A stretch of DNA of 64,000 bases from positions 188,796 through 252,795 of the forward strand of contig PCXY01000005.1 in NCBI GenBank assembly GCA_002762785.1, in the 5' to 3' direction. The DNA comes from Candidatus Woesearchaeota archaeon CG10_big_fil_rev_8_21_14_0_10_45_16 (GTDB taxonomy: Archaea > Nanobdellota > Nanobdellia > Woesearchaeales > GW2011-AR9). Position numbers and translations under genes: made by a program. The notes under the pieces are model-generated. The model was not told the origin of the DNA. It saw nothing but the letters and a program-made list of their open reading frames with translations, and ran no database searches. Positions 5 through 57,783 of this stretch are shown here, one piece after another (the stretch's first letter is position 1; every line of letters begins with the position of its first letter).

Positions 5-2896
5 ATGTACAAAGATAATCTATTTAAACCTAAAAGGATAGCTTACAGCAGTGTTGTCGGCGACCTTTTCCATTACGGTCATCTTCAGTCTCTTCAATAT
101 GCAAAATCCATATCAGATTATTTTGTTGTTGGCGTGATCACCGACGAAGGGGTTGAATCATACCGGGCCAAGCCCGTAGCTAATTTTGAAGAAAGGAAAG
201 CCGTCATCGAGAACCTACGATGTGTCGACCGGGTGATGGTGCAGAAAACGCGTGATCATACAGAAAACCTGATGAAACTCCATAGCGAGTTTCCGGATGC
301 AGAACTGATCCTGGTGCACGGAGACGATATCGCTGACATCCATGGAAAAGATTATGCTCTTCAGATAGGAGGGAGGGTCGCAGTCCACCCCTATTATAAT
401 CGTCTCTCAACATTTAAGATTATCCAGCATATACTGGAACAGAAAGACAAGATAAAGGATCTTACGACGTTCTCAAGCCTAATACAAAATGAGAGCGCAA
501 GAAAGAATATCCAAAATAAGATCATCATCTCGACGAAAGCGAACACTCTTGACGCCCTCAGGCCTCTTCTCAAACTATCAAGGATAGAAGATCTTTATTT
601 TTTTACGACCAGCGACTGGATGAACAAGAAAGAAAGGATACTAAATACGATCAAGGGAAGGTTCGGGCCGGCGAAGATTGTCATACGGAGTTCAGCGACA
701 AACGAAGACACGTTAGAGTCCGCAAATGCCGGCTGTTATGAAAGTATCCTGAACATAGATTCAACGGACGAATCAGAGATAGAAAAGGGGATTGAAGAAG
801 TTCTTGACTCATACAGGTCAAAGGATGCACAAAGCTCTTTTAATCAGGTCTTGGTACAGAAACAGACGGAAGGTATTATCATGAGCGGAGTCGTCTTCAC
901 AAGAACGCTTGAGTGGAACGCACCATATTATGTCATCAACTATGATGACGTCTCTGGCAGCACCGATTCGGTGACAGCAGGAAGAGAGAGCCAAAGTGTC
1001 TGCATTTCGCATTTCTGTGAAGATGCACCTGATAACATGAAAGATCTCATAAAAGCAGTGAAAGAGATCGAAGAGATGATCCCGGGAATACCTCTCGATA
1101 TTGAGTTCGCTGTCACGCAAAATGGTGAAGTCATTATCTTCCAAGTAAGGCCGCTGGCCACCAATATCAGGAAGAAAAAGAACGATTTTCTGGTGCGCCA
1201 GAAGATTACAGCTTTAAAAGAGAAGTTCAGATCTTTGAGCGTACCTCTGACGCATGTTGAGGGAGAAAAAACTATCTTCGCTGATATGCCGGACTGGAAT
1301 CCTGCCGAAATAATTGGAGACAGGCCAAACCACCTTGATTTTTCTCTTTATGATTACATCATCACTAATAGATCGTGGCATCTGGCCAGGACGTCGCAGG
1401 GCTATTTTGACGTCAAGAAAGCCCCTTTAGTAGAACTCTTCGGTGTCAAGCCATATATTAACGTAAGGTACTCTTTCAACTCATTCACGCCCGCTTCTTT
1501 ACCGAAAAAGACGCGAGAGAAGCTCGTCCAATTTTATCTAGAAAAACTCAAAGAGAACCGTCATCTCCAAGACAAGATAGAATTCGAGATAGCTTTCACC
1601 TGTTACGATTGCTCTTTCCCAGAGAAAATACGAGAGCTTCGAGAACACGATTTCAGTGATGAAGAGATAGAGGAGATAAGGTCTTCTATCCTTGATCTGA
1701 CAAACAGATTAGTCTCCGATGGTTTGAAAGATATCAATGATGATCTTAAGACGGTCTTCTCATTGGAGAAGAGAAGAGAAGAGATTATATCCCCAGCCCC
1801 TAATGTTCCTAATCCTTCCGAGATCATAGGATATGCAAAATTGCTTCTTGACGAATGCCATGAGAAAGGCACCATCCAGTTTTCAAGGCTAGCTCGCCTT
1901 GGATTTATCGGGAAGATCATCCTAAATAGCCTGGTATCAAAAGGAGTGATTACATCCAATCTTTATGATAAAGCTTTTTCATCCATCGAAACTGTGGCGA
2001 CGGTCTTAAGCAATGATTTTGATGGTCTTTGTTCGGGAAATATTTCCAAGAGCGATTTCCTGCGTAAGTATAAACACCTCAGGCCAGGAACCTATGACGT
2101 AACGTCGCCTCGTTATGAAAACAATGACAAGTTACTATCGACATCGGTGGTCTTCAAGGATAATCATAGGAAAGAAAATTTTGTGTTGGATGGAGATGAC
2201 AAAAAGGCTATTGACCAAGAACTTCAACAACACGGTTTTACGTTTGATAGTAGGCATCTCTTCCGTTTCTTTGAGGAAGCGACCAAGGCGCGTGAACTGG
2301 CTAAATTTGAGTTTACAAAAAATCTTTCTGATGCCCTCGAACTGGTGGCTGATGCCGGAAAACTGATGGGTTTTACACGAAAAGAAGTCGCCATGCTTGA
2401 TATCAACGACATCTTCAAGATGAAAAATCAAGATATCACGAAGATGACGGCCGATTGGCAGGATCTGATAAAAGCCAGAGAACAGAAAAGAAATATTGAT
2501 ATGATGCTTGAACTTCCAGCCGTCATAAGAGACGAAGGGGATTTTGATATCGTTACACACTACCTAGCGAAACCAAACTTCATCACCCAAAAGACCATAA
2601 CATCTCCTATCATGAACATCGCCGAGATCGATCACCAGGATGTTCCTAATTTAGCTGGAAAAGTTGTTCTTATTGAGAACGGTGACCCAGGCTACGATTG
2701 GATCTTCACCAAAAATATCGGCGGTCTTATAACTAAGTATGGTGGTGTCGCCTCGCATATGTCTATCCGCTGTGCAGAGTTCGGCGTCCCTGCCGCCATC
2801 GGCTGCGGCAACGTCTTATTCAATAAATTAGTAAAAGCTAATACAGTTACTTTAGATTGCGCGAAACAGATGATAGATATCAGAGGCTTACGATGA
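5..2896 (+). CDS. Tri-domain fusion of an N-terminal TagD-like cytidylyltransferase with a PEP-synthase/PPDK-type ATP-binding domain and a C-terminal PEP-utilising phosphohistidine swivel domain. The PEP/pyruvate TIM-barrel domain is absent.
   Basis: The HxGH motif 'FHYGHL' with 'VVGVITDEG' lies near the N-terminus. The ATP-grasp-like block 'KIVIRSSATNEDTLESANAGCYESI' follows. The C-terminal mobile His domain reads 'GGLITKYGGVASHMSIRCAEFGVPAAIGCG'. The reading frame is continuous for 963 aa. Confidence 0.7.
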   Translation: MYKDNLFKPKRIAYSSVVGDLFHYGHLQSLQYAKSISDYFVVGVITDEGVESYRAKPVANFEERKAVIENLRCVDRVMVQKTRDHTENLMKLHSEFPDAELILVHGDDIADIHGKDYALQIGGRVAVHPYYNRLSTFKIIQHILEQKDKIKDLTTFSSLIQNESARKNIQNKIIISTKANTLDALRPLLKLSRIEDLYFFTTSDWMNKKERILNTIKGRFGPAKIVIRSSATNEDTLESANAGCYESILNIDSTDESEIEKGIEEVLDSYRSKDAQSSFNQVLVQKQTEGIIMSGVVFTRTLEWNAPYYVINYDDVSGSTDSVTAGRESQSVCISHFCEDAPDNMKDLIKAVKEIEEMIPGIPLDIEFAVTQNGEVIIFQVRPLATNIRKKKNDFLVRQKITALKEKFRSLSVPLTHVEGEKTIFADMPDWNPAEIIGDRPNHLDFSLYDYIITNRSWHLARTSQGYFDVKKAPLVELFGVKPYINVRYSFNSFTPASLPKKTREKLVQFYLEKLKENRHLQDKIEFEIAFTCYDCSFPEKIRELREHDFSDEEIEEIRSSILDLTNRLVSDGLKDINDDLKTVFSLEKRREEIISPAPNVPNPSEIIGYAKLLLDECHEKGTIQFSRLARLGFIGKIILNSLVSKGVITSNLYDKAFSSIETVATVLSNDFDGLCSGNISKSDFLRKYKHLRPGTYDVTSPRYENNDKLLSTSVVFKDNHRKENFVLDGDDKKAIDQELQQHGFTFDSRHLFRFFEEATKARELAKFEFTKNLSDALELVADAGKLMGFTRKEVAMLDINDIFKMKNQDITKMTADWQDLIKAREQKRNIDMMLELPAVIRDEGDFDIVTHYLAKPNFITQKTITSPIMNIAEIDHQDVPNLAGKVVLIENGDPGYDWIFTKNIGGLITKYGGVASHMSIRCAEFGVPAAIGCGNVLFNKLVKANTVTLDCAKQMIDIRGLR

Positions 2897-4698: not shown

Positions 4699-5487
4699 AT
4701 GAAAGCGATAATTCTCGCAGCCGGCATGGGCACCAGATTAGGGAAATATACTGAAAGCCTGCCAAAATGCATGCTCAATTTCAACGGCAAAACCCTTATC
4801 GAGAGACAGGTGGAGACTCTTAGAAAATGCGGAATAACTGATATCACCATTGTCAAAGGATATATGCCAGAGAAGATCGATATACCCAACACTAAAACGT
4901 ACCTCAATTCTGATTATCCAAACACCAACATGGTAGAAACCCTTTTCTGCGCGGAAGCGGAAATGGATGACGACATCCTGATCTGTTACGCTGATATCAT
5001 CTATGAAGAGAAGGTTCTCCAGACGATATTAGATAGTCCATCAGATGTCGGCGTCACCGTCGATGAAGATTATTGGGAATACTGGCAGTCACGAGCGGAT
5101 AACCCCGAGGACGACATGGAAAGCCTCATCATCGAAGATGGCAGGATAGTCGATCTGGGAAATACTAAGTGCACCAGGGAAGACGCGAAAGTGCGTTATG
5201 TTGGCCTTATCAAATTATCAAAAGCCGGCGTTCAAAAGCTACGGGAAGTCTATCATCAGAACAAGATAGATCATTTTCTTAAGAACAAGCCATGGCTGCG
5301 GTCAAAGTCTTTCAAGAAAGCTTATATGACCTGCCTGATCCAGGCCCTTATCAACAGCGGACAGGAAGTGAAGCCGATCACCATCAGAAGAGGCTGGCTG
5401 GAGTTTGATACTGTTGAAGATTATGAGAGATATGTTAGCTGGGCTGATGAAGGAAATCTAGGACGTTTCCTGAGTCTCGACAACTAG
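4699..5487 (+). CDS. LicC-like nucleotidyltransferase, probably a CTP:phospho-alcohol cytidylyltransferase
   Basis: The N-terminal 'MKAIILAAGMGTRLG' motif followed by 'PKCML' is typical of the LicC / sugar-phosphate nucleotidyltransferase fold. Confidence 0.7.
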   Translation: MKAIILAAGMGTRLGKYTESLPKCMLNFNGKTLIERQVETLRKCGITDITIVKGYMPEKIDIPNTKTYLNSDYPNTNMVETLFCAEAEMDDDILICYADIIYEEKVLQTILDSPSDVGVTVDEDYWEYWQSRADNPEDDMESLIIEDGRIVDLGNTKCTREDAKVRYVGLIKLSKAGVQKLREVYHQNKIDHFLKNKPWLRSKSFKKAYMTCLIQALINSGQEVKPITIRRGWLEFDTVEDYERYVSWADEGNLGRFLSLDN

Positions 5488-6234
5488 GGCTTTCTTGTCA
5501 AGTCTCTTCAGGCCGCGGACCGTCGAGTAAAGCTTTCTTAAGAATTCTAAGAAGAACAAGGCTGAGTAGATCAGTGCTAGTTCAACAGGACGGTTGAAGA
5601 TTATCAGGAAAAACAGAAGGTTGAACGGCTGACCCCTTCGCACGATCTCCACAAAAATACGGTTGATGATACTCTTGTTACGGAAAGAGACACTTTCGCT
5701 ATAGACCTTCATGACAACTTCCCGCTTCTCATCTTTGAACCAATAAGGGTTGATGCGTATCAGTTTTTCCAACAGCCAGAAAAGGACTCCTGTCAAAGTA
5801 ATGATCAAGTAGAAGACATTTCCGTTCATTGAAAAATTAGCGATCGCCAAAGCGATAAACACGATAGGCGTGCCGAAGAACAACGCTAACTGCTCCAGGT
5901 AGGAACCAAGCATGCTGAACCGCCCTGTCATCCTGGCAAGGTTACCGTCGACATGATCACCGATGTAGGCGACGAAATTGAATAATATGAGTGCTAGGAT
6001 ATTATACCAATAATCTCCTAATGAAAACAGATATGCTGCCACCAGTTGGAGCATAATCCAAGATGAGGTCACCATGTTAGGTGTTATCGGCGTGCGGGCT
6101 AGTAGAGCTGCCGGATAAAGACTGATCTCCATCCAGAAACGTTGCGAAGGGCTCCAACATTCTTTTCGGCCTTTGGCAAGCATTTCGCCGAAAGTTTTCT
6201 TACCGGTCATCATGGTCCGCAAACGATGGATCAT
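5458..6234 (-). CDS. CDP-alcohol phosphatidyltransferase family membrane protein
   Basis: The family motif 'DHVDGNLAR...G...D' is present along with multiple hydrophobic helices. Confidence 0.7.
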   Translation of the reverse strand: MIHRLRTMMTGKKTFGEMLAKGRKECWSPSQRFWMEISLYPAALLARTPITPNMVTSSWIMLQLVAAYLFSLGDYWYNILALILFNFVAYIGDHVDGNLARMTGRFSMLGSYLEQLALFFGTPIVFIALAIANFSMNGNVFYLIITLTGVLFWLLEKLIRINPYWFKDEKREVVMKVYSESVSFRNKSIINRIFVEIVRRGQPFNLLFFLIIFNRPVELALIYSALFFLEFLRKLYSTVRGLKRLDKKALVVETQETS

Positions 6235-6248
6235 TTATATATTTAACG

Positions 6249-6296
6249 AATTAGAGAATTAGAGAATTAGAGAATTAGAGAATTAGAGAATTAGAG
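6249..6296. repeat. Perfect tandem repeat (AATTAGAG)x6 ending 4 nt before the cmk ATG, in the divergent intergenic region
   Basis: The repeat is read directly from the sequence: 'aattagag' occurs six times with no mismatch. Confidence 0.95.
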
Positions 6297-6300
6297 AGAT

Positions 6301-7083
6301 ATGGCCCAAAACAACAGCTTCTTTTCCACAAGCATTTTAAAGACATCGACAGCACAACTGAGCATGGATATCTTTGATGTCATCACGATCGACGGCTCCT
6401 CATTCACCGGAAAGTCTACCACTGCTAGAGCTCTAGCCAGGATGACCGGCTACCAGCCTTTAAATACCGGAGCGATATATCGAGCTGTAGGGTTCCTGAA
6501 ACAACGGAACAACATCCCTGATGATGATATCCAGCAGATAGTCAAGATGGTGCAGGGTCTTAAAATAAGATATTCCTATGAAAATGAAGCTCCAAAACTG
6601 ATGGTCGATGATGAGGATCTTTCATTTGTCATCAAAGACAGCTCACTGGTGCCTTTAGCGGCGCAAGTAGCCGGGATTCCGGCTGTCCGCGAAGCCCTTC
6701 TACAAATCCAGCGCGACATAGCTGCCAAAGGGAAGTATATTGTCGAGGGACGAGACACTGGAACAATCGTATTCCCTAATGCTCGGTGGAAATTTTTCAT
6801 AGATGCCGATATTGATGTCAAAGTAGCCCGCTTTTTTAAGACACTCTCGGAAGAAGAAAAAAAGAACTATACTTTTGAGCAGGTCAAGAAAATGCTGATT
6901 GAAGTAGACGAGAAAGATCGAGCTAGGAAGGTTGCTCCTCTTCGGCAGGCTGAAGATGCCATCTTTTACGACAACTCAGAGAGTCCGACGCCAGAGCAGG
7001 ATGCGGTTGTTCTTTGGTATCATATAACCCATGCAGCTGAGATCAAGAAAAATTACCCGAATATACTTTCTAGATTGAAATAG
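6301..7083 (+). CDS. cmk: Cytidylate kinase (CMP kinase)
   Basis: The P-loop 'ITIDGSSFTGKST' and overall Cmk-like layout are present. At 260 aa it is somewhat long for this family. Confidence 0.6.
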   Translation: MAQNNSFFSTSILKTSTAQLSMDIFDVITIDGSSFTGKSTTARALARMTGYQPLNTGAIYRAVGFLKQRNNIPDDDIQQIVKMVQGLKIRYSYENEAPKLMVDDEDLSFVIKDSSLVPLAAQVAGIPAVREALLQIQRDIAAKGKYIVEGRDTGTIVFPNARWKFFIDADIDVKVARFFKTLSEEEKKNYTFEQVKKMLIEVDEKDRARKVAPLRQAEDAIFYDNSESPTPEQDAVVLWYHITHAAEIKKNYPNILSRLK

Positions 7084-7141: not shown

Positions 7142-8593
7142 TCAGAACTGGAAGTAGAAGAACTGTACTGTCTGGGTCGGGCTGAAGAAGTACAGCAGCA
7201 GACACATCCCCGTGAGATAGATGGTCCATTCAAAATAACCTTTCTGGGCGACGGAAGAGACAAAACCCCTCTTGAAATAAGTCAGAGTATGTATGATCAT
7301 AAATACGATGACGAAAAATAAAGGCACCTGAAACTGCGGCAGGAGGCTGCCAAGCTGGGCTGACCATCCCGAGAAGTCAACAAAGATAAACTTCTTGACC
7401 GCATAGAGGATGTAAGAAGGATCATAGAGGCGGAAGATAAGGAGCGACAACACGAAAAGGTATAATGTGAAGAGGGTCTTGATGAGATTATGAAAACGAG
7501 GGAATGAAGATAATTTAGTCTTTACAGCCAGACGCTGGCGCCAGTCCCGGGTAGCCATGCCGATCAGCAGGAAAACTCCATGTAAAGTTCCCCAAATCAC
7601 GAAGTTCCAGCCAGCGCCGTGCCAGAGGCCGCTAGTAAAATAGACGATAAGGACAGAAATATAAAGCCTAGTCTTGGTGAAACCTTTTCTCATCAGCGGC
7701 ATAAACAGATAATCACGGAACCAGGTTGAGAGAGAGATGTGCCAGCGCTTCCAGAACTCAGCGATCGTCTTGGAGAAGAACGGCTTGTCAAAGTTAAGAG
7801 GGAAATGGAAACCCATGATCCTGGCCAGGCCGATAGCGACGTCAGAATATCCTGAAAAATCGCAATAGACCTGGATGGTGAAAGCGATAGCGCCGACGAT
7901 GATGGGAATACTTCCCGGGTAGGCTGTCGGATCGGCAAAAAAGACGTTGACAAAAGCAGCGATATTGTCAGCGATAACCATCTTCTTGACCAGACCCCAC
8001 ATCACCAAAGCCATGCCGTGCTTGAAGTTTTCTTGGGTGATGGTGATCGGCTTGTCAAGCTGCGGCAGCAGGTCAGAAGCGCGGATGATCGGACCGGCTA
8101 CCAGCTGCGGGAAAAATGAGACGTACAAGGCAAATCTCAGGAAGGAGTCTGTCGGTTTCAGCTTGCGGAAATAGATATCCAGCGTGTAACTCATGGTCTG
8201 GAAGGTGAAGAACGATATCCCGATCGGCAGGATGATGTGGGCTAACGGCAGATGGGGATCATTGCCGAACCAGGAAGCGACCATATTTGTCGTCTTTATA
8301 GCAAAGTTAGTGTACTTAAAGAAAGCCAGGACTCCCAGGTTGCCGATGAGACTGACGGCAAGATACCACTTTCTGTTCTTATCGCTTTTCGAATCATGGA
8401 TAGCTTTCCCACAGAAAAAATCCAGCAAAGAAGAAAACAACAAGAGGACGACCAAAGGGCCGCTTGAAAAATAGTAGAAAAAGTAGCTGGCGAAGAGCAA
8501 GAACAGATACTGGTACTTCCTAGTTTTTACAATCAGAAGGAATAAAAGAACAACAACAGCAAAATAGAGGAAAGGAACGCTGTTAAATAACAT
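7142..8593 (-). CDS. MBOAT family membrane O-acyltransferase of the DltB/AlgI type
   Basis: The conserved His motif 'WHISLSTWFRDYLFMPL' is present in a polytopic protein. The start was trimmed to the 'MLFNSVPFLYF' Met so that it no longer overlaps the upstream gene. Confidence 0.8.
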   Translation of the reverse strand: MLFNSVPFLYFAVVVLLFLLIVKTRKYQYLFLLFASYFFYYFSSGPLVVLLLFSSLLDFFCGKAIHDSKSDKNRKWYLAVSLIGNLGVLAFFKYTNFAIKTTNMVASWFGNDPHLPLAHIILPIGISFFTFQTMSYTLDIYFRKLKPTDSFLRFALYVSFFPQLVAGPIIRASDLLPQLDKPITITQENFKHGMALVMWGLVKKMVIADNIAAFVNVFFADPTAYPGSIPIIVGAIAFTIQVYCDFSGYSDVAIGLARIMGFHFPLNFDKPFFSKTIAEFWKRWHISLSTWFRDYLFMPLMRKGFTKTRLYISVLIVYFTSGLWHGAGWNFVIWGTLHGVFLLIGMATRDWRQRLAVKTKLSSFPRFHNLIKTLFTLYLFVLSLLIFRLYDPSYILYAVKKFIFVDFSGWSAQLGSLLPQFQVPLFFVIVFMIIHTLTYFKRGFVSSVAQKGYFEWTIYLTGMCLLLYFFSPTQTVQFFYFQF

Positions 8594-9551
8594 CGTACTC
8601 ACCCCTGGCGATACGTTCCGATAACAGGCGTGAGCCTTCACGGTTTAGGTGTGTAAGGTCGGTGAAATATTCAGCAGAAAAATCGGTTTCGATGTTGACA
8701 AGCCTGAAGCCGATGATCTCTGACAATCCTTGGATGTAATCATTATACTGCTGAAGAGAATCGGCAGGAACAACGTTAAAGGTAATAGGATTCATCGGCA
8801 TCTGGACGACGACCACTTCGATACCTTCTGCTTTTAAAGAAGCGGTGAGATACGCAAATGCTTCCCTCTCTCTTCGCGGGTGATCACCAAAACTGAATAT
8901 GCCCAAGACTTTTGGATCCTGAAGCTTTTGTTCCAGTTCTTCCGCTGATTGGATATCCTCAAACTGATGGGGATTCTTTAGGTTGTTACCAGCAGGTACA
9001 ACAGCTTCCGAGGAAGAGGACCGGTGCAGGAAACTCAGGAAGTAAGGAAGGATGAATTTTCTTTTGTAAAGAAGACGCTGGAACCTGTTCATGGAGATCA
9101 GTTCCAGTTCGTCGCTATCTAGTCTCTCCAAAAGATAGGAAGAAGGGGTGACGGATGATGACATCAACATGAAGAAATCGTCGTTCTGGTTGATGGTCTC
9201 ATCAAATGATGCAGGAGTGATGCCGATCACGACCTTGCTTGGTCTAGCAGAGATTATCAAATCTTTCTGAAGAGCTACTTGGAACGGCCTCATGCCAGCT
9301 ACGCCTAGGTTGAAGCACGGCGGAGAATCTTTGAGAAGATCCTCGATGACCGTGCAGTCGACATCTTCCCTGATCTGGCTGTCCCCTACAAATAAGATAC
9401 TCCCGTCTGGAACTTCAGCATAAAGATGAAGAACCTCCACGAAATGATTGCCCTGAGCGCCGAACTGAGAGAAATTATAAGCGAAAGAGCAGTAGAGGCC
9501 GGTACTAAGAAGGACTGCCAACAATGGAAAAAACAGATACTTCAGGTTCAT
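8583..9551 (-). CDS. SGNH-hydrolase-like protein of the DltD/AlgX type
   Basis: An N-terminal hydrophobic anchor is followed by block I 'FVGDSQ' and block V 'DLTHLN'. Confidence 0.55.
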   Translation of the reverse strand: MNLKYLFFPLLAVLLSTGLYCSFAYNFSQFGAQGNHFVEVLHLYAEVPDGSILFVGDSQIREDVDCTVIEDLLKDSPPCFNLGVAGMRPFQVALQKDLIISARPSKVVIGITPASFDETINQNDDFFMLMSSSVTPSSYLLERLDSDELELISMNRFQRLLYKRKFILPYFLSFLHRSSSSEAVVPAGNNLKNPHQFEDIQSAEELEQKLQDPKVLGIFSFGDHPRREREAFAYLTASLKAEGIEVVVVQMPMNPITFNVVPADSLQQYNDYIQGLSEIIGFRLVNIETDFSAEYFTDLTHLNREGSRLLSERIARGEYDVI

Positions 9552-16793: not shown

Positions 16794-17525
16794 TTATTTT
16801 GCGTAGAAAAGATTAGCTTTTTCTAATGATTCAATGGTGCCAATGTCAAACCAATGTTCTGTGAAGATAAAACCATGTACTTCAGACACGTTTATTAGAT
16901 AGGGGATGATGTTGCCTGGAGCATCTCCGCCCTTTTCTTTTAATAAAATATCGATCTGTGGAAGATCCCCTTTAGTGAAGATGTAGCAAGCTGTAGACCC
17001 TAAGGCACTTTTTGGTTCAGACGGTTTTTCTTCAAAATTGATTACTTTGGTACCTTCGATGATACCGACTCCCAGACGACCTCTTACGATGTTAACATCA
17101 CCAAAGTCACGGAAAGCCACAATTGAAGTATTCTTTTCGTTGTAGAACTTAACAAAATTTTGTAAAGAGAAGCCAAAGAGATTGTCACCGGCGATGACCA
17201 ATAGATCATCATTGATGTTCTCAGTCTTTATGACATGATTGATGTCGCCAACGGAGCCGAGACGAGCTTCATTAGTCTTAGTATAATCGTTGATGATCTT
17301 GATCGGTTTGTCATAGGTGTAATGTTCTAACCAGTCCATGAAGTTGCTGTAGAACTTATCATTGGTCACTACATAGATGCTTTCCACATCATCAACTGCA
17401 GCTAATTTGTCCAAGATATATTCCATGAGAGGCTTATCAGCCACTTTTAGAAGTGGTTTAGGCGTGTTTTTTGTCAATGGATATAATCTGGTGGCGTATC
17501 CGGCTGCCAGGATCAATGCTTTCAT
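16794..17525 (-). CDS. Sugar-1-phosphate nucleotidyltransferase of the short glucose-1-P thymidylyl/uridylyltransferase form
   Basis: The N-terminal motif 'MKALILAAGYATRLYPLTKNTPKPLL' is characteristic of this family. Confidence 0.75.
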   Translation of the reverse strand: MKALILAAGYATRLYPLTKNTPKPLLKVADKPLMEYILDKLAAVDDVESIYVVTNDKFYSNFMDWLEHYTYDKPIKIINDYTKTNEARLGSVGDINHVIKTENINDDLLVIAGDNLFGFSLQNFVKFYNEKNTSIVAFRDFGDVNIVRGRLGVGIIEGTKVINFEEKPSEPKSALGSTACYIFTKGDLPQIDILLKEKGGDAPGNIIPYLINVSEVHGFIFTEHWFDIGTIESLEKANLFYAK

Positions 17526-17652
17526 GATCTCTAGGACTTAGAAAATGATTTAAAAGGCTTGTGGAAGAAAGGTGTATTGTAGGAGAGGAAGTTAAGGATC
17601 ATTATTTGTAACTAAACCATCTATCGAAAGAAATAAAACCTCTCGCCATTTA

Positions 17653-18636: not shown

Positions 18637-18841
18637 ATAAATCATAAAGAAAAGGTGGACAGCTTACCTGGTTTCCCACGGAATGCAGTACACCCAAGTA
18701 CGGAAGCGGTCTTAATTTCTGTGTTCGAAATGGGAACAGATGAACCCCGCCCCTATGGCCGTCCAATAGGCTCGAGAAAGCCTCCCTTTATAAAGATTTT
18801 GATTATTTTTCCACAACGATTTAAAAAGGCAGTAGAATCAG

Positions 18842-20017
18842 ATGCTTATGAAAACGGTGGTCGTATCAGGATACTTTAACCCTATCCATAGAGGTCATGT
18901 CTCTTTATTCAAAGAAGCCCGTAAATTAGGCGAAAAGTTGATCGTCATCGTCAACAATGATAAACAGGTTCTGATAAAAGGTTCTCAAGCTTTCATGGAT
19001 GAAGAAGAGAGGAAATACATCCTCGAATCCATCCGTTATGTGGATGAAGTGGTCGTTTCCATCGATGAGGACGGCACCCAATGCAGGACTTTAGAGATGC
19101 TCAAGCCCGATATCTTTGCCAACGGCGGAGACAGGAAAAATACCAGTGATATCCCGGAAGCCAAGGTCTGCGAAAGATTAGGCATCCAGATGATCTTCAA
19201 CGTCGGCGGCGACAAGACCCAGAGCAGCAGCTGGCTGTTAGGCAGTGTCAAAGGACCTTCAATTCTCGATGAATACGATCAGACCAAGCATGGTGACAAA
19301 AAAGTCCTGATCGCGGATGTGGACGAGACCATCTGCGAGACCTGTCAGGAGATATCATCGGAGATGGCGGTCGAGATAGATCGGTTGGTAAAACAAGGCT
19401 ATACCTGGGCCTTCATCAGCGGCACCAAAGTTGATGACTTGCAGAAGATGATCTCCTCCAAAGTGAAAGAAGAACATCATCTATTAGCGACGACCGGCAC
19501 CAATTATGTGAAAGTAACTCCTCAAGGAAATGATCTTATCTATCAACAATCTTTCTCCACTGAACAAAAGCAAGAGATCATGGCAGCGTTAGACAAGGTG
19601 ATCACCCATTTCGACATAAGGGCCATGACCACCAAAGAAGACCAGGTCCAAGATAGGGATTCACAGATCACCTTATCTGCTATCGGCAGAAATGCGCCTA
19701 TAGAACTAAAGAAACAATATGATCCAGATGGTGAGAAACGAAAAGTCTGGATAGGATATCTGCAAGATCTTCTTGGAGATAGATATGATTACAAGATCGG
19801 CGGTACTACCTCTTTAGACATCACCCAGAAAGGCTTAGACAAAGAATGGGGTATCAAAGAGTTTGCTAAACAGAACAACATCCTTTTGAAAGAGATTTTA
19901 TTCTTTGGTGACAAGATCTATCCCGGCGGCAACGATTACCCTGCTTCCAAGATAGTTGATTGCATCGCTGTCAAGAATCCGGAAGATACGTTAAGAGAGT
20001 TGAGGAAGATACCATGA
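18842..20017 (+). CDS. Bifunctional protein with an N-terminal RfaE-II/TagD-like nucleotidyltransferase domain (HxGH) and a C-terminal HAD-superfamily phosphatase domain
   Basis: The nucleotidyltransferase motif is 'VVSGYFNPIHRGHV'. HAD motif I is 'LIADVDETICET'. Confidence 0.6.
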   Translation: MLMKTVVVSGYFNPIHRGHVSLFKEARKLGEKLIVIVNNDKQVLIKGSQAFMDEEERKYILESIRYVDEVVVSIDEDGTQCRTLEMLKPDIFANGGDRKNTSDIPEAKVCERLGIQMIFNVGGDKTQSSSWLLGSVKGPSILDEYDQTKHGDKKVLIADVDETICETCQEISSEMAVEIDRLVKQGYTWAFISGTKVDDLQKMISSKVKEEHHLLATTGTNYVKVTPQGNDLIYQQSFSTEQKQEIMAALDKVITHFDIRAMTTKEDQVQDRDSQITLSAIGRNAPIELKKQYDPDGEKRKVWIGYLQDLLGDRYDYKIGGTTSLDITQKGLDKEWGIKEFAKQNNILLKEILFFGDKIYPGGNDYPASKIVDCIAVKNPEDTLRELRKIP

Positions 20018-23117: not shown

Positions 23118-23279
23118 TTACGGTTTCTTCAATCTTGGCAGCACCCAATAGGCAAACACGGCAGCCACCACGATCACGCTCCAGAAGACGATATCTGGAA
23201 TCAAGCGTAATGCAAAAAGGATCAGATTAGCGATAATGACGATCAAAAAAAAGATGCCGATAACTTTAGCCGGTTTCAT
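23118..23279 (-). CDS. Putative 53-aa two-TM membrane peptide translationally coupled to hisS
   Basis: Its ATG overlaps the hisS stop as ATGA. The hydrophobic sequence is 'MKPAKVIGIFFLIVIIANLILFALRLIPDIVFWSVIVVAAVFAYWVLPRLKKP'. It is absent from the ORF track because it is shorter than 60 aa. Confidence 0.3.
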   Translation of the reverse strand: MKPAKVIGIFFLIVIIANLILFALRLIPDIVFWSVIVVAAVFAYWVLPRLKKP

Positions 23280-24607
23280 CCTAGTCTCTTGATAACGTCT
23301 TTAACGCTCAACACTTGTTCAGTGCCGTCAGTCATGTTCCGGAGTACAACTTTCTTCTTCTTCAGCTCGTCTTCACCGAGGATGAGGGCATAAGGGATGC
23401 CGACAGAACCGGCATATTCCAGATTCTTGCTGACGCCTTTCCTGAAGGCAAAGTCAACATTGATACCGGCTTCCCGTAGTTCCTTCGCCATCTTTAACGA
23501 TTCAGTCATCGTATTGATAGGGATCACATACACTTGAGCTGTTGTCCTTTTCTGAAAACCTTCCTTCTCCTTCAACACTTCCATCAGTGGAACCAGACCG
23601 AAAGCGATACCTACTGCCGGTGTATCTCGGCCGGAGAACTTGCCGATCATGTCATCCCATCTGCCGCCGGCTGCCAGAGAAGAGGTGATGGAACTCTTCT
23701 TGGCAAAGGCTTCATAGACCGTACCAGTGTAATAGGCTAATCCTCTAGCAAGAGAAACATCAAACTTGACAGTTGAAACTCCCATCACTTTCAGATACGA
23801 GAACAGTTCTTCCATCTCAGCAATACCTTGCTGCGCTTCTTCATTCTTGATCTTTTTTAAAGTCTTGAGAGTAGCTTTCTCGGTAACATAGGAAAACAGC
23901 GCATCGGTCTGTTTCTTAGAATAACCACGCTGTTTCAGCTCTTCAGAAACACCGCCCTTACCGATCTTGTCTAACTTGTCGATGGCGACGATGGCCGACC
24001 CTTTATCTTTTATCCCGGCTTCCTCAAGAATACCATTTAAGATCATTCTATTATTTACCTTGATGACAACATCCATGCTCAGATCATTGAAGACCTTTTC
24101 AGCTATCGCCAGCAGTTCCGCTTCCGCCAGCATCGACTTTACGCCGATAGTGTCAGCATCACACTGCCAGAACTGCCGCACCCGGCCTTTCTTGATCGGC
24201 CCGTCTCTGAAGACCGGACCCATCTCATACCTCTTGAACGGTAATTTCAGCATCGGATTAGCAGCCATATATCTTGCTAACGGAACCGTCAGGTCGAAAC
24301 GCAATCCTAATTTCCGGTTGCCTTGATCCTTCAGCTTGAAGATCTCTTTCAGAGCGTCGGAAGATTCACCGGCAGCAAATTTAGCAGCCAGGGTTTCATA
24401 GCGTTCGATGATCGGTGTCTCCAACGGCGCGAAGCCATACGATTCAAAAGCCGATCTGATGGTGTTCACTACTTTGTTCTGCATGATCTTCTCTTCCGGC
24501 GAGATGTCTGAAACCCCCTTAGCTGTCTGAAAGTCCATTTTCCTATCCTCGATGATTGTTTTGGTGTTTATAAGGTTTTTTCCGTCAAGTTTCATTTTTA
24601 CCTCCAT
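23276..24607 (-). CDS. hisS: Histidyl-tRNA synthetase
   Basis: Class II aaRS motifs with HisRS-specific 'AAGGRWD' are present, as is a C-terminal anticodon-binding domain. An alternative start lies 4 codons in at 24595. Confidence 0.85.
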   Translation of the reverse strand: MEVKMKLDGKNLINTKTIIEDRKMDFQTAKGVSDISPEEKIMQNKVVNTIRSAFESYGFAPLETPIIERYETLAAKFAAGESSDALKEIFKLKDQGNRKLGLRFDLTVPLARYMAANPMLKLPFKRYEMGPVFRDGPIKKGRVRQFWQCDADTIGVKSMLAEAELLAIAEKVFNDLSMDVVIKVNNRMILNGILEEAGIKDKGSAIVAIDKLDKIGKGGVSEELKQRGYSKKQTDALFSYVTEKATLKTLKKIKNEEAQQGIAEMEELFSYLKVMGVSTVKFDVSLARGLAYYTGTVYEAFAKKSSITSSLAAGGRWDDMIGKFSGRDTPAVGIAFGLVPLMEVLKEKEGFQKRTTAQVYVIPINTMTESLKMAKELREAGINVDFAFRKGVSKNLEYAGSVGIPYALILGEDELKKKKVVLRNMTDGTEQVLSVKDVIKRLG

Positions 24608-24832
24608 TTATACATCTCAACTATAGAACGATAGACCGCTCTCGCTGTATCTATATCTTCAGAAGAGATTACGCCCATCTTATAGGCTCTTTCCATCTCT
24701 AATAATTTTTCTAAGTTATCTTCGATAGGACTGCTGGCGATGAACACCCTGGCTGTTCCCGCTATAGCTAGTTTGACTTCCTCTTTGTATTACATTTTTA
24801 TTTTCCATCTTTCATATCTCCCTGCTTAGAGC

Positions 24833-24895
24833 CCAGGCGGCTTTGAAGGCCTGCCGAGGAGAATTGAACTCCTGTCTCTTGAGTCACAGTCAAGA
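24833..24895. other. Three consecutive perfect stem-loops in the hisS upstream region, with unknown function
   Basis: The hairpins are 'caggc...gcctg', 'aggag aattgaa ctcct' and 'tcttga gtcacag tcaaga', with stems of 5, 5 and 6 bp. Confidence 0.3.
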
Positions 24896-25072
24896 ATCTT
24901 ACCATTAGAAGACGGCAAGCATAAGAAACGATGTGTGGGCTTTCGCCTAACGATGATGCAGAGAACTATCTATACTTTTCAAGACAGAGCAATAACTAGA
25001 AAAATCACCGACAATGAATACAATCAACTCGTGTCATAAGTATCTAAAAATAGTATTTCATTAAAAATGTTT

Positions 25073-25756
25073 CTATAGATAACTGCGAAGATGCTTGCCC
25101 AAAGTCAAGAAACCGGCAGCGCTCATACCGTAAGCCACAGTATAAAGAATGTCCGCGACCACAAGGAATCCGATGTCGTAGATAACATCTCCCAAGAGGA
25201 TGCCCAAGCTGGCGAAAAAGAAGATAGACAGAGGCTTGCTGATCGGACCAAGCTCTTTTGAAAAGATGAACGAACAGCTGGCCAGGGCTACGATCAATGA
25301 ACTGACTATCGGATAGAGATACAAGAAGAACGATTCAAGCGGACTTACGACACTGAACAAGATATAGGCAGAGATACCCAACAATACGGCAGCGATGCCA
25401 AAGATAGCCAGGATCTTCTGAAAGTTAGACGTACGCCTGAACAAAACGATCACCAAAGCCAGGAAAGAGAGGATGATGAAAAACGCTCCTGCTGTCCAGT
25501 AGACGTCGCCGATACCGACAAGACCGGTGCTGTTAAGGACGTTGATGTCCAGGAAATACGAGACTTCACCCAAGGCGTAAAGGAAATATCCTGAGACCAA
25601 GAAAAACAAGATGAAATAATTGGCGTCATCAAAAAGAGTCTTTAGCTTGTTGTTGAAAAGATGGGCCAAAGTGACAACTCCAGCTACAGCGGCCAAGCCC
25701 GCAAGAATCACTGCCAGATAAGCAAATATAGTGCTTAGATCCATCACCATGAACAT
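25073..25756 (-). CDS. Polytopic membrane protein of unknown function
   Basis: This 227-aa protein has 6 or more hydrophobic helices and matches no recognisable family. Confidence 0.45.
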   Translation of the reverse strand: MFMVMDLSTIFAYLAVILAGLAAVAGVVTLAHLFNNKLKTLFDDANYFILFFLVSGYFLYALGEVSYFLDINVLNSTGLVGIGDVYWTAGAFFIILSFLALVIVLFRRTSNFQKILAIFGIAAVLLGISAYILFSVVSPLESFFLYLYPIVSSLIVALASCSFIFSKELGPISKPLSIFFFASLGILLGDVIYDIGFLVVADILYTVAYGMSAAGFLTLGKHLRSYL

Positions 25757-25810
25757 AAAGGAAAGAAAACCAGTATTTAAAACATTCGTTTACAGGATAG
25801 AGATAAAGAG

Positions 25811-25898
25811 GGCAGCTGGGGGGAATCGAACCCCCTCCACAGGTTTGCTGCAACCTAACTCCACAGACCCGTATACTAGCCGTTATACTACAGCCGCC
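25811..25898 (-). tRNA. tRNA-His (anticodon GUG) with a genomically encoded G-1 and a 15-nt intron after position 37
   Basis: The T-arm 'GGGGG TTCGATT CCCCC' is intact and the acceptor stem GCGGCTG pairs with CAGCTGC. G-1 opposes the C73 discriminator, which is the His identity element. The anticodon loop reads 'CTGTGGA', and the 3' half 'ACCTG' pairs with 'CGGGT' after removal of 'AGTTAGGTTGCAGCA' (about 25846-25860). CCA is not encoded. Confidence 0.65.
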
Positions 25899-25943: not shown

Positions 25944-27377
25944 TCAGATCACCAGCACTTTCTGCTCTCTGACCACTTTCAGGCTCAGTCTCTTAGTATA
26001 ACCAAGGAACTCGCCACCAGCCTGCAAAGGAAACGGCTTCTTGGCAGTGATCTCGATCTTCCTGCCGTGGACCAACACCAGCGGGGCTATCTTTAGACCG
26101 AAACTAGGCAGTATCAATGACCAAAGGCGCACCAGCTTGTTGGACACAGAAAGGTGAGTATTGATGCAGGCTGCCGCATAGATCTGCTTCTCAGCAGGCC
26201 GCATTCGCCCAGGATACCAACGCAGACCGAAACCGTAATAGGGATGGGTGCCCAGGATGACATTGACTACATTGTTCCAATTCTGCTTCCTGCCATCGAC
26301 CTTACAGACAAAATCATATCTCCCCGGAGCGTGCCACAAAGCTTTCCAGCTGCCACGCATGTAATCAAGGAACCCGTTCTGCGACCTTCTGACCCCGAAG
26401 CGGATGACGTCAGCATCGATGCCGATGGAAAGGAACGTCGTCTGTCTTTTGCCACGATCCCATTCGATCTCAGCGACGTTAAGAACATCTTCTTGGAACC
26501 TGAAACGAGAGCGAAGGTATTCGAAACGCTTTCCTTTATAGAAGTAAGAATAATAGGCATTTCCTGCCCCTAGAGGAAAGAAACCCAGAAAATTCTTCTG
26601 CAGCGGCTTATGGTTAAGAGCGCTTTCAAACGAACCGTCGCCGCCAGCGATGATCACATGCGGTGTCGTCTTTTTCTCAACACCTTTGAACATATCACTT
26701 TTTTTAGACAGGAACAATAAAGAAGCATTCCTTCTCCGTGAGAACAGGTAAAGAAGCCTTCTCCGATACCCGTCATGGAAACCGCGGGAACGGTTGTTGG
26801 CCAGGATCGTCAACGGCACTTTAAGAGCAACTTTTCCATGACGTCTTTGACTCAGAGCTTTACCATAACCATGAAAGTAATAGATGATCGATGAAAGAGC
26901 GACTATCAGGGCGACGATGATCACGATGTCTTGCAGCAGTATCAAAAAGGAAAGAGCCGGCCTTTGATCTTGCATCAAGTACTGGTTAAAGAAAATCAGT
27001 ATCAGTATCAAGTATTGAAAACCCACTAAAACTTTCCCATAGATCTCTCCAGGAACCTCTACATCTTCCTGGCCGGCCAGCCAGCGGATGACACCGACAA
27101 AAACGTCGCGGAAAGCGAAGAACAACAGAAAATATACTGAAAAATGTCCTAAAGCCGTGAACGTTGTCAGTAGACCGATCACCAGCAGCTTATCGGCAAA
27201 CGGATCGTAGAAAGAACCTACATCATGGGTAAAGATGAGGTTATCGATGACATCGGACAGGACGGCTAGGAGCATGATAGCCAAAGCCAGCAAAGAAGAC
27301 AGTGGCGTCTGTTGCAGCACCAGATATATCAATAAAGGCAAGGCCAGGAAACGGAATGCCGTGATGATCGATGCCAT
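25944..27377 (-). CDS. Fusion of an N-terminal divergent CDP-alcohol phosphatidyltransferase-like membrane domain with a C-terminal diacylglycerol/lipid kinase catalytic domain
   Basis: The N-terminal TM region carries 'SDVIDN...DPFADK'. The C-terminal DAGK_cat motif is 'VIIAGGDGSFESALN'. Confidence 0.55.
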   Translation of the reverse strand: MASIITAFRFLALPLLIYLVLQQTPLSSLLALAIMLLAVLSDVIDNLIFTHDVGSFYDPFADKLLVIGLLTTFTALGHFSVYFLLFFAFRDVFVGVIRWLAGQEDVEVPGEIYGKVLVGFQYLILILIFFNQYLMQDQRPALSFLILLQDIVIIVALIVALSSIIYYFHGYGKALSQRRHGKVALKVPLTILANNRSRGFHDGYRRRLLYLFSRRRNASLLFLSKKSDMFKGVEKKTTPHVIIAGGDGSFESALNHKPLQKNFLGFFPLGAGNAYYSYFYKGKRFEYLRSRFRFQEDVLNVAEIEWDRGKRQTTFLSIGIDADVIRFGVRRSQNGFLDYMRGSWKALWHAPGRYDFVCKVDGRKQNWNNVVNVILGTHPYYGFGLRWYPGRMRPAEKQIYAAACINTHLSVSNKLVRLWSLILPSFGLKIAPLVLVHGRKIEITAKKPFPLQAGGEFLGYTKRLSLKVVREQKVLVI

Positions 27378-52763: not shown

Positions 52764-54986
52764 CTATTTCACTTTCAACTTATTCTTAAATTCTTCTAAA
52801 GAAGCATAACCCTTCTGTTTCATGATCTCTTGCAGTTCTTTGACGATCCTCTCAAATGCCGGCGTGTCTTCCTGCATGAACACCGTCCCGAGCTGCACCG
52901 CATCCGCCCCTGCCAAAATATACTCAAAGACATCTTTGCCGGAAGTGATGCCGCCGACACCGATAACCTGGATCTCTGGTCTCAACAATTCTCTAAACTT
53001 GCGGACGTTGGAAAGGCCGAACGGCTTTATGGAAGTTCCGCCGACACCGCCGAAGCCGCCTTTGGGCTTGATGACCGCTTCTTCCGTCTCTGGATCGATA
53101 ACCAGACCGTTTCCGAGACTGTTGACACAGGTGACGAAACTGACGCTGCTTTGGTTAAGGATGTCAGCCATCTCCTGGAAATGAGCAAAGTCAAAATACG
53201 GCGGCAGCTTGACACCAAATGGTTTGGTACAGACTTCGGAAACTTGTTTAAGAACTTCTTTTGACTGTTCAAAGTCGTAGCCAACCTGCGGTTTGCCGAT
53301 GACGTTGGGACAAGAAAGGTTAAGTTCGATGAGATCGATCTCTTCCACGGCAGACAGTTCTTTCAGCATCACCAGGTTATCAGCAAGAGAAAGGCCGGAG
53401 ACGCTGACGATGCAAGGTTTTCCATGCTGCTTCAATCCAGGGATGGTCTCGGCATATCTCTGGTAGCCAAGGTTGCACAAGCCGTTGGAGTTGATTGAGT
53501 TTTGAGAAAAATCATGATACCGTGGTTCAGGATTACCATCCCTCGGTTCCAGAGTGCAGGACTTGGTCATGATCGCCGATGAGACTGAGGCTCCCAAGAG
53601 TTCTAATTCTTCCTCCGTCGTGCATCTGGGACCAGCCGCATTGAAGATAGGATGCTGGAAAGGGACGCCTCCTATCATGGTAGAAAGATCAAGGTTCTGC
53701 GCGAAATGTACTTCTTGTCCTTTGGCCTCTTCATAGATCCGGCCTCTTTCAAAAGCTACTTGTCCGTTGACGATAGTCATCACCGGCCAGCCTTTGATGG
53801 TCATGCCATGAAATGGCGTCCAGCCGCACTTAGAGAACTGCGCCTCGTCAGAGATTATGCCTTCCCGTTCCAGGTCGATGACGCAGATATCAGCGTGATA
53901 GCCTTCTTTCAGTTCGCCGCGGTTTTCGATGTAGAATATCCTGGCGGGATTGGTCGAAGTCAGTCTTATGACATCAAGAAGCGTCAGCTTATTCTCATGG
54001 ACAGCATTCAGAAGGAGAGGCAGCATCGTCTGCACGCCAGGGACACCGCACGGCGCCTGCTGGAATTCACGGTTCTTTTCCTCTTTGGTATGTGGAGCGT
54101 GATCAGTCGCTATCATGTCCACGACACCGTCACGGATACCAGTCCAGAGGGCTTCCTGATCTTCCACATAGCGAAGAGGGGGATTCATCTTGCCCAAATT
54201 TTTTTTCTGAATGAAGAAAGCCTCAGTTAAGAACAGATGATGCGGACAGACTTCGCAAGTCACTTTAGTTGTCTTGTTCTTCTGCAGGAATTCCATCTCT
54301 GCTTTGGTGCTGCAATGAGCGATATGGAGCGGTCTGTCAAGATACGAGGAGATGGTTATCGCTTCGGCCAGGCTAGTTACTGCGCAGAGAGCGTCCCGCA
54401 TCTTGTGGTGAAGCTGTGAGTTTCCATGAAGATGATTGAAGTGACGGATGAGCTGTTCGTTCTCAGCGTGGACGACCACAGGTCTTCTGGAATTTTGTAG
54501 AATTTCCGCAAAGACGCCAAGATCATCAGTCAGATAGTTTCCGGTGCTGCTGCCCAGATATACTTTGATACCGGCGATATTCTTCTGGCGGAGATTATCT
54601 TTGTTTTCGACACAGCCCAGCAGATAAAAACCGTAATTGACAATGCTCTTCATGGCCAGCTCTCTTTTTTCTTTAAGCTGTTCTTCGAAGACTGTGGGAG
54701 GGTTATTGTTAGGCATGTCCAGGATAGTCGTGACGCCGCCGGCAGCAGCCGCTTTCGAACCGGAAAGGAAATCTTCTTTATGGGTCGCACCCGGCTCACG
54801 GAAATGGACATGCGCGTCGATGAGGCCAGGGATGACATGCTTGCCGGCACAGTCGACGACAGTCTCATATTGCTCTGGAAGAAGATTAGGCTTGATCTCA
54901 GCGATAAGACCGTCTTTGATGCGAAGGTCGGCGGCGATGAAACCACCTTTCTCTACAGAATGGACCTTGCCGTTTTTAAGAAGCAT
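52764..54986 (-). CDS. Fusion protein with an N-terminal dihydroorotase and a C-terminal class 1A dihydroorotate dehydrogenase
   Basis: The N-terminal 'IDAHVHFREPG' is the cyclic amidohydrolase motif. The C-terminal half aligns along its length with L. lactis PyrDa-type DHODH, including 'NLSCPN' with the catalytic Cys and 'GGFGGVGG'. The frame is continuous for 740 aa. Confidence 0.75.
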   Translation of the reverse strand: MLLKNGKVHSVEKGGFIAADLRIKDGLIAEIKPNLLPEQYETVVDCAGKHVIPGLIDAHVHFREPGATHKEDFLSGSKAAAAGGVTTILDMPNNNPPTVFEEQLKEKRELAMKSIVNYGFYLLGCVENKDNLRQKNIAGIKVYLGSSTGNYLTDDLGVFAEILQNSRRPVVVHAENEQLIRHFNHLHGNSQLHHKMRDALCAVTSLAEAITISSYLDRPLHIAHCSTKAEMEFLQKNKTTKVTCEVCPHHLFLTEAFFIQKKNLGKMNPPLRYVEDQEALWTGIRDGVVDMIATDHAPHTKEEKNREFQQAPCGVPGVQTMLPLLLNAVHENKLTLLDVIRLTSTNPARIFYIENRGELKEGYHADICVIDLEREGIISDEAQFSKCGWTPFHGMTIKGWPVMTIVNGQVAFERGRIYEEAKGQEVHFAQNLDLSTMIGGVPFQHPIFNAAGPRCTTEEELELLGASVSSAIMTKSCTLEPRDGNPEPRYHDFSQNSINSNGLCNLGYQRYAETIPGLKQHGKPCIVSVSGLSLADNLVMLKELSAVEEIDLIELNLSCPNVIGKPQVGYDFEQSKEVLKQVSEVCTKPFGVKLPPYFDFAHFQEMADILNQSSVSFVTCVNSLGNGLVIDPETEEAVIKPKGGFGGVGGTSIKPFGLSNVRKFRELLRPEIQVIGVGGITSGKDVFEYILAGADAVQLGTVFMQEDTPAFERIVKELQEIMKQKGYASLEEFKNKLKVK

Positions 54987-55080: not shown

Positions 55081-55098
55081 ATGTTTCTACTCAAAACC

Positions 55099-57688: not shown

Positions 57689-57783
57689 CAGAACTATCGA
57701 AAATGACGGGTTTTTATAAACCTTGTGGAAGTTTAGTTACTGTTTAGTGACAATCATTTGGTGTCCAGGCAGGTGTAATTAAC

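Follow-up and report, generated by a model that had tools for sequence, protein, structure and literature searches.

A perfect octanucleotide microsatellite between two divergent, predicted leaderless promoters in an envelope-type gene cluster of a Woesearchaeota archaeon

That repeats can drive phase variation is firmly established for host-associated bacteria. At the lic1 locus of Haemophilus, CAAT repeats lie inside the licA reading frame and act by translational frameshift. In the hifA/hifB pair of Haemophilus influenzae, a (TA)n tract separates the -35 and -10 elements of overlapping promoters, and its length sets promoter strength. The TAAA tract of Neisseria meningitidis nadA and the 7-bp repeats of H. 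influenzae hmw1A/hmw2A are found upstream of, or outside, the core promoter and grade expression; the promoters concerned are of the sigma-70 type, their regulator sites are known (IHF/NadR), and the changes in expression have been measured. Simple sequence repeats (SSRs) with units of 6-9 nt have rarely been studied, the heptamer repeats of Xanthomonas and Nostoc being generic intergenic SSRs with long units (PMC4692102). With regard to archaea, a 2010 survey inferred the effects of homopolymeric tracts computationally in 18 genomes (PMC2831843), and a 2025 review placed the distribution of phase-variable loci among archaea under future work (PMC11868660).

Here, we describe an octanucleotide microsatellite of 48 bp, (AATTAGAG)x6, situated between a (d)CMP kinase gene (cmk) and a divergently transcribed CDP-alcohol phosphotransferase gene in a 64-kb stretch of archaeal DNA (64,000 nucleotides in total; hereafter the window). 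The initial annotation of this stretch had reported a perfect six-copy array, and this was confirmed by the sequence at 6249-6296 and by TRF, which returned an array at 6248-6297 with a period of 8, 6.2 copies, 100% matches and a score of 100; the second-best array of the window scored 54. The longest period-8 self-match run in the window was 42 bases, compared to 7.9 on average and 10 at most in 100 shuffles that preserved dinucleotides, and none of the other periods from 4 to 12 yielded a run longer than 14. The array is far beyond chance and is the sole long SSR of the window. On the strand of the CDP-alcohol phosphotransferase gene it reads (CTCTAATT)x6 and, with six units at 100% matches, it is a slippage-prone perfect tract of the kind known from promoter-spacer SSR phase variation. 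Two further octamer sites were found in the window, both intragenic, against 3.6 expected by chance, which ruled out a dispersed regulatory motif or operator. A search for repeats and inverted repeats around the locus did not reveal operator-like palindromes, and folding of the array as a single strand (-1.5 kcal/mol, centroid unfolded) revealed no meaningful structure.

A coding repeat was ruled out, TAG or TAA codons closing all six frames through the array, which lies outside both open reading frames (ORFs). The parallel to Haemophilus lic1 drawn in the initial annotation thus does not extend to mechanism, since a lic1-type tract is a repeat whose unit is not a multiple of 3 and which sits in the 5' part of an ORF. 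What the two loci have in common is a LicC-like cytidylyltransferase nearby and the theme of phospho-alcohol decoration of the envelope; they differ in that there is no licA/licB/licD set here, the transfer role being taken by the CDP-alcohol phosphotransferase.

The archaeal nature of the host, as originally proposed, was borne out by the presence in the window of genes for a group II chaperonin (thermosome), Cbf5 (DKCLD, TruB and PUA domains), an archaeal PheRS-beta and HerA; the source is named as Candidatus Woesearchaeota archaeon CG10_big_fil_rev_8_21_14_0_10_45_16, a metagenome-assembled genome (MAG) from Crystal Geyser groundwater (DPANN). Other features of the window include a stand-alone 5S rRNA gene (18654-18766, minus strand), the 64-kb window being without a 16S or 23S gene, and two tRNA-His(GTG) genes (24848-24919, 72 nt; 25810-25897, 88 nt and possibly intron-bearing) that bracket a 227-aa ORF and adjoin the histidyl-tRNA synthetase gene (23276-25897, minus strand). 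A 740-aa protein encoded at 52764-54986 on the minus strand is a fusion of an amidohydrolase (dihydroorotase-like) with dihydroorotate dehydrogenase, two enzymes of consecutive pyrimidine-synthesis steps.

The two genes on either side of the array correspond to PIN73370.1 (cmk) and PIN73369.1 (CDP-alcohol phosphotransferase, annotated as 'hypothetical'). As annotated (6301-7083, plus strand), the cmk product scored 164.4 bits with TIGR00017 (cutoff 135.55) and is predicted on that basis to be a bacterial-type (d)CMP kinase; its alignment with homologues (alignment A1) displayed invariant G37, K38, S39, R130 and D152 residues, among others. The product of the opposite gene (5458-6234 as annotated, minus strand) scored 35.5 bits with PF01066, the CDP-OH_P_transf family (cutoff 22), and matched AF2299 in the PDB (E 3.6e-6). 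Compared to the canonical PF01066 signature, D-x2-D-G-x2-A-R-x8-G-x3-D-x3-D, its motif DHVDGNLAR-x8-G-SYL-E-QLA-L, or D-x2-DG-x2-AR-x8-G-x3-E-x3-L as a pattern (residues 86-111 of the 251-aa form), has Glu in place of the third Asp and Leu in place of the fourth. The CDP-OH_P_transf proteins of relatives carry Glu and His at the last two signature Asp positions, and the altered signature may denote either a divergent subfamily or a changed activity.

The LicC-like cytidylyltransferase noted earlier next to these genes was recovered at 4699-5487, with pneumococcal LicC (1JYK, E 1.4e-14) as its best PDB match. Its gene overlaps the 3' end of the CDP-alcohol gene in convergent orientation, and an MBOAT gene (7142-8641) converges on cmk. 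Each of the two genes flanking the array is followed by a convergent gene, and both are monocistronic. The neighbourhood is a CDP-alcohol/cytidylyltransferase cluster of envelope type, in agreement with the envelope locus originally described. The MBOAT protein (499 aa) is paired with a DltD-like protein (322 aa; 7142-9551, minus strand for the pair), recalling the DltB/DltD or AlgI/AlgJ pairs of O-acylation. The head of the cluster (5-2896, plus strand) encodes a 963-aa fusion of unusual architecture: a cytidylyltransferase-like domain (PF01467) at the N-terminus and a PEP-utilising mobile domain at the C-terminus are combined with a PPDK_N ATP-grasp segment. The window also encodes a further CDP-OH_P_transf protein (477 aa; 25944-27377, minus strand), which harbors a C-terminal extension of ~300 aa with no Pfam match at E<=1e-5.

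To locate promoters, octamers resembling TTTAWATA were scored in the sequence preceding the first in-frame ATG for each of 50 ORFs of the window. An octamer matching at 7 or more of the 8 positions started at -34 to -28 in 16 of the 50 genes, with a mode at -30, when a background of 0.0013 per position would yield ~0.45 such octamers in this interval. Given this enrichment of TATA elements ~30 nt before the ATG, the genome is predominantly leaderless, a statistical model in which transcript starts are predicted. Since longest-ORF calls swallow promoters in a leaderless genome, the annotated starts of both genes flanking the array, 6301 for cmk and 6234 for the CDP-alcohol gene, are probably over-extended; ~30 nt upstream of either ATG, repeat units only and no TATA-like octamer were found. 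Over-extended starts were also noted elsewhere in the window, at 55081 (probably codon 7, 55099), 18842 (codon 3) and 25756 (codon 3).

In the case of cmk, Met22 is the probable start. All 14 aligned homologues (35-52% identity, several of them from named Nanoarchaeota MAGs) start at or within a few residues of this position (alignment A1), the 21-aa N-terminal extension is absent from every one of them, the Pfam domain begins at aa 28, and one gene caller chose Met22 (P0001). The predicted core promoter upstream of Met22 consists of TTCCACAAG followed by the TATA-like TTTAAAGA, and the stretch TTTTCCACAAGCATTTTAAAG within it is nearly identical to CTTCCACAAGCCTTTTAAATC in the promoter of the gene at 17525 on the minus strand. 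The leaderless arrangement of TATA element and ATG is also seen at the locus of a relative (L235), where TTTATAAA is located at -31 from an ATG. Exact matches to TTCCACAAS occur four times in the window, each time upstream of a TATA element ~30 nt before an ATG, and this motif could represent either an extended form of the BRE or an operator shared by a small regulon. The four sites (6324-6332, plus strand; 17558-17566, minus strand; 18809-18817, plus strand; 57722-57730, minus strand), all 1-3 nt upstream of the TATA element, belong respectively to cmk, a 243-aa ORF (16794-17525), a cytidylyltransferase-phosphomannomutase fusion (18842-20017) and a 406-aa ORF (56468-57688), with looser versions at three further promoters.

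With regard to the CDP-alcohol gene, the orthologues of two relatives start at the equivalent of residue ~12 (alignment A2), other gene callers yielded a protein of 251 or 250 aa, and an exact look-up of the annotated 258-aa protein found no record. The TATA-like stretch that had been seen beside the array is present (TTTATATATTTAA at 6234-6246, the element extending to 6247), but its distance fits this opposite gene, read from Met8 or Met9: the stretch is offset by -34 to -28 from Met8 and by -37 to -31 from Met9, with the minus-strand octamers GTTAAATA and TATATAAA at -34 and -31, respectively. We infer from these offsets that the element serves the CDP-alcohol gene, although its plus strand reads TTTATATA (8/8, 6234-6241) and it could act both ways. 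Both genes would thus possess the BRE/TATA arrangement of archaeal leaderless transcription at their predicted starts, at -28 from Met22 of cmk and at -34 and -31 for Met8/9 of the CDP-alcohol gene.

Table 1. Features of the spacer and of the two genes that flank it (window coordinates).
Feature	Position	Strand	Basis or remark
CDP-alcohol phosphotransferase gene, probable start Met8 (6213) or Met9 (6210)	5458..6213	-	PF01066, alignment A2, TATA offsets
TATA element, putative leaderless promoter of the CDP-alcohol gene	6234..6247	-	Offsets from Met8/9; 1 nt from the array
Perfect microsatellite (AATTAGAG)x6	6249..6296	.	TRF, period-8 run; five copies in L003 and L004
Unique spacer from array to cmk promoter, with probably spurious ATG 6301	6297..6323	.	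Sequence, homologue N-termini
Predicted cmk core promoter, TTCCACAAG (6324-6332) then TATA-like TTTAAAGA (6336-6343)	6324..6343	+	28 nt before ATG 6364
cmk gene, probable start Met22	6364..7083	+	TIGR00017, Pfam, homologue N-termini, P0001

The spacer between the corrected start codons measures 150 bp (6214-6363) and holds, from left to right, the leftward TATA element, one base, the array, 27 bp of unique sequence and the cmk promoter [Table 1]. Relative to the predicted starts, the array occupies positions -36 to -83 of the CDP-alcohol gene and -68 to -115 of cmk; it is upstream of both predicted core promoters and outside the TATA-to-start intervals, UTRs and ORFs. That the array fills the intergenic space and ends 4 nt from the cmk ATG, as the initial annotation had it, is true of the annotated starts but not of the corrected ones, the former being probably wrong. 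The proposal that slippage changes promoter-to-start spacing was not upheld: with the array upstream of both core promoters, slippage would alter the distance between promoters instead. Compared to six other divergent pairs in the window, whose spacers are 108-134 bp long, this spacer would measure 102 bp without the array, 142 bp with five units and 150 bp with six.

Set against the described systems, the array resembles the hifA/hifB tract in being located in a spacer common to two divergent genes and differs from it in lying between two core promoters and within neither; a tract inside a core promoter, as in promoter-spacer SSR phase variation, is not what the predicted starts indicate here. 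The nearest functional analogues, judged from position and repeat type, would be the nadA TAAA and hmw 7-bp tracts, with which the array shares a perfect short tandem repeat of longish unit, a location outside the core promoter, a surface-related gene, apparent variation by whole units and an expected effect that would be graded and not on/off. The difference is that the present locus has a predicted archaeal BRE/TATA leaderless pair, and that the copy numbers seen are 5 and 6.

Against this geometry stands the 8/8 plus-strand TATA consensus TTTATATA, from which rightward transcription could begin ~30 nt on, inside the array (~6264). The repeats would then form the 5' leader of cmk, lengthened by 8 nt per unit, and translation would proceed from 6301 and/or 6364, the ORF being open from 6301, the start annotated by both NCBI and JGI. 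We hold such a leadered cmk to be very unlikely, in view of the extension missing from all homologues, of the complete promoter of its own that Met22 possesses and that matches others in the window, and of leadered transcripts being a minority in this genome. Furthermore, 6301 is preceded by AGAGAGAT only and not by a Shine-Dalgarno sequence of the GGAGG type; a Shine-Dalgarno role for the terminal GAGAGA was rejected, such sequences being GGAGG-type in this host where present (e.g. at the thermosome gene). Even with a rightward start, the TATA-to-transcript-start spacing would stay constant with copy number.

The nearest relatives of cmk are ~52% identical, and none was found between 53% and 100% identity; there are thus no sister strains or species in which conservation of the array could be assessed. 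A protein-based cmk scan of GTDB species genomes, among which the source species is absent, gave 59 pattern matches and no confirmed one. In the relatives (Nanoarchaeota/Woesearchaeota; L234, 2769-4220; L235, 3501-4971; L236, 2826-4296), a bacterial-type cmk and a CDP-OH_P_transf gene of 240-242 aa are adjacent, co-directional and ~10 bp apart, with genes for an Fe-ADH, a TPP-enzyme (of a size like that of phosphonopyruvate decarboxylase) and a glycosyltransferase (GT2) as neighbours. The presence of cmk beside CDP-OH_P_transf in relatives indicates that the gene pairing is conserved, and it is plausible that CMP set free by the CDP-alcohol transferase is recycled by the kinase, which would couple CMP recycling to head-group transfer. 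The repeat array is absent from the relatives' cmk/CDP-OH loci, and both the divergent arrangement and the array appear from this comparison to be recent and lineage-specific.

Exact-protein look-ups located the locus, with identical flanks, in five other public assemblies, and the look-ups with the 251- and 250-aa forms of the CDP-alcohol protein matched only contigs of those same assemblies. Since the array is present in all five, it is not an assembly artefact of the present record, and an assembly chimera was ruled out. Two JGI contigs, L003 (3300025850) and L004 (3300004209), span the array with 5 units compared to 6 in the window, an 8-bp gap being the sole difference and no mismatch occurring over 1.78 kb. 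The remaining contigs show 100% identity to the window across 3.8-4.6 kb, but they terminate within the array. Thus, the comparison of copy number across assemblies proposed in the initial annotation did disclose a difference, five versus six with no mismatch in the flanks, but one to which assembly collapse may have contributed.

Were the five-copy allele an artefact of de Bruijn collapse, the array would be fixed and static at six copies. At the breaks of the Logan contigs there are exactly 30 periodic bases, a number that we take to be k-1 for k=31 and to be expected of any longer periodic stretch; the two contigs of JGI 3300004210 (31 kb and 13.6 kb) have exactly 42 periodic bases at the break on each side, as fits k=43, and skipping one loop at k=43 gives exactly 5 copies. 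In addition, the ends of L003 and L004 nearly coincide, so that the two may come from the same reads and not be independent. The usual metagenome assemblers have a final k, and typical reads a length, exceeding 50 bp, however, and the periodic stretch of 50 bp is shorter than both; orthologous arrays of the octamer, moreover, clearly vary in other organisms. We therefore rate collapse as an appreciable but minority possibility, and regard the difference between 5 and 6 copies as probably real. The breaks in JGI 3300004210 fall exactly where a 5-copy and a longer allele would diverge, but as they fit k=43 just as well they were not counted as evidence.

In scans of metagenome and genome collections for three units, (AATTAGAG)x3, more than 100 loci were retrieved from each, in unrelated bacteria; the present locus was not among the matches listed in the metagenome scan. 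Arrays of (AATTAGAG)n were found in Elusimicrobiota, Anaerolineales and Bacteroidales, and bacterial arrays that are orthologous had 5 vs 11 (L024/L132 vs L111), 4 vs 13 (L050 vs L098), 4 vs 5, 7 vs 14 (L227 vs L228) and 15 vs 11 (L155 vs L211) copies, with identical flanks in the four comparisons labelled by contig, a spread indicating that the octamer slips readily in bacteria. In the Elusimicrobiota MAG SO_2017_GW3_47, the array is found within a dispersed intergenic element with more than 15 copies, some of which sit in the spacers of the ribosomal-protein operon. With octamer arrays beside ribosomal-protein genes, a location upstream of a gene says little in favour of a switch or contingency locus. 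The Elusimicrobiota element reads AGAATTGGTGAATTGGAAAAAAATCTAATT(CTCTAATT)3-4CTCTGGTGTTAATATG, in the same orientation to the downstream gene as the array described here (contigs L201, 4100-6400, L134, L136, L143, L161, L194, L196 and L206). Many Prevotella/Bacteroidales contigs share the junction TTTATCAAG(AATTAGAG)3AAT, suggestive of a conserved element (L017, L020, L049, L060, L084, L088, L089, L147, L149 and others). Like the heptamers of Xanthomonas and Nostoc, these bacterial arrays resemble the one in the window in having perfect intergenic units of 7-8 nt and lengths that vary between close relatives, with no necessary tie to contingency genes; the genomes with generic SSRs carry many copies, whereas the window has a single array.

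Taken together, these observations lead us to favour, as the probable account, a young, slippage-prone and mostly neutral microsatellite in the spacer of two divergent leaderless promoters. At 6 of 8 positions the left flank, TTAACGAA, agrees with TTAGAGAA, the unit register that follows it, which suggests that the array nucleated from native promoter-flanking sequence; it probably did so next to the TATA box, from TTAACGAA then TTAGAGAA, and would gain or lose units by replication slippage. Transcription of the CDP-alcohol gene would run to the left, driven by the TATA element at 6234-6247 and starting at Met8/9, and that of cmk to the right from the TTCCACAAG/TATA promoter at 6324-6343, starting at Met22. 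Each unit would shift the distance between the promoters by 8 bp and their rotational phase by ~274 degrees, leaving promoter geometry, leader and frame unchanged, and the spacer would stay near the range of the other divergent pairs (142-150 vs 108-134 bp). The effect on expression would most likely be nil, or small and graded, and not on/off. Weighing against a neutral microsatellite are the statistical nature of the leaderless model and the predicted starts on which it relies, the gap of just 1 nt between the array and the BRE/TATA element of the CDP-alcohol gene, where archaeal upstream regulators act and the array may affect that promoter, and the pattern of a contingency locus that is formed by six undecayed copies, the only long SSR in 64 kb, beside an envelope-decoration gene. 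Its hypermutable aspect would also be weakened if the 5-copy allele reflected assembly collapse.

These same features could be read as those of a rheostat or phase-variation-like element, in which one or both promoters become more or less active with the number of units, either because an upstream regulator site is moved or because the two initiation complexes change in helical phase relative to each other, with population heterogeneity in the envelope decoration of an episymbiotic archaeon as the outcome. Such an element would account for an undecayed perfect array that is the only long SSR of the window and has 5 vs 6 copies in an otherwise identical population, for its abutting the CDP-alcohol TATA/BRE near the LicC-like cytidylyltransferase and the MBOAT/DltD-like pair, and for a spacer that, the flanking genes being monocistronic, controls exactly this pair; the JGI 3300004210 contigs ending where alleles of 5 and more copies would part are compatible with it. 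We nevertheless consider it unlikely, as the array is outside both TATA-to-start intervals, the spacer is near normal length, the lack of an array in relatives means that it is not a conserved regulatory device, arrays of the octamer adjoin housekeeping genes elsewhere, and the copy variation could be neutral or artefactual. There is a small chance that the array has a graded regulatory role.

Preferring, then, a mostly neutral tract, we conclude that the array is an intergenic microsatellite of a known sort and a modest candidate for something rarer. The probably over-extended starts change the interpretation of every upstream feature of this genome. As a candidate, the locus is concrete and testable, in that single reads can span the array, the flanking genes are single-gene units and public time-series metagenomes of the same Crystal Geyser population exist. 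As DPANN archaea live attached to hosts, stochastic surface variation would be biologically meaningful to them. An archaeal contingency locus, in which a hypermutable tract abutting the BRE/TATA element of the CDP-alcohol gene, and shared with the divergent gene of a CMP-recycling kinase, tunes the phospho-alcohol decoration of the envelope in a DPANN episymbiont, is in our estimation a long shot; if true, it would provide a clonal groundwater population with heritable and reversible surface heterogeneity, and archaeal-type transcription would have its first described case of a promoter-associated SSR switch or rheostat.
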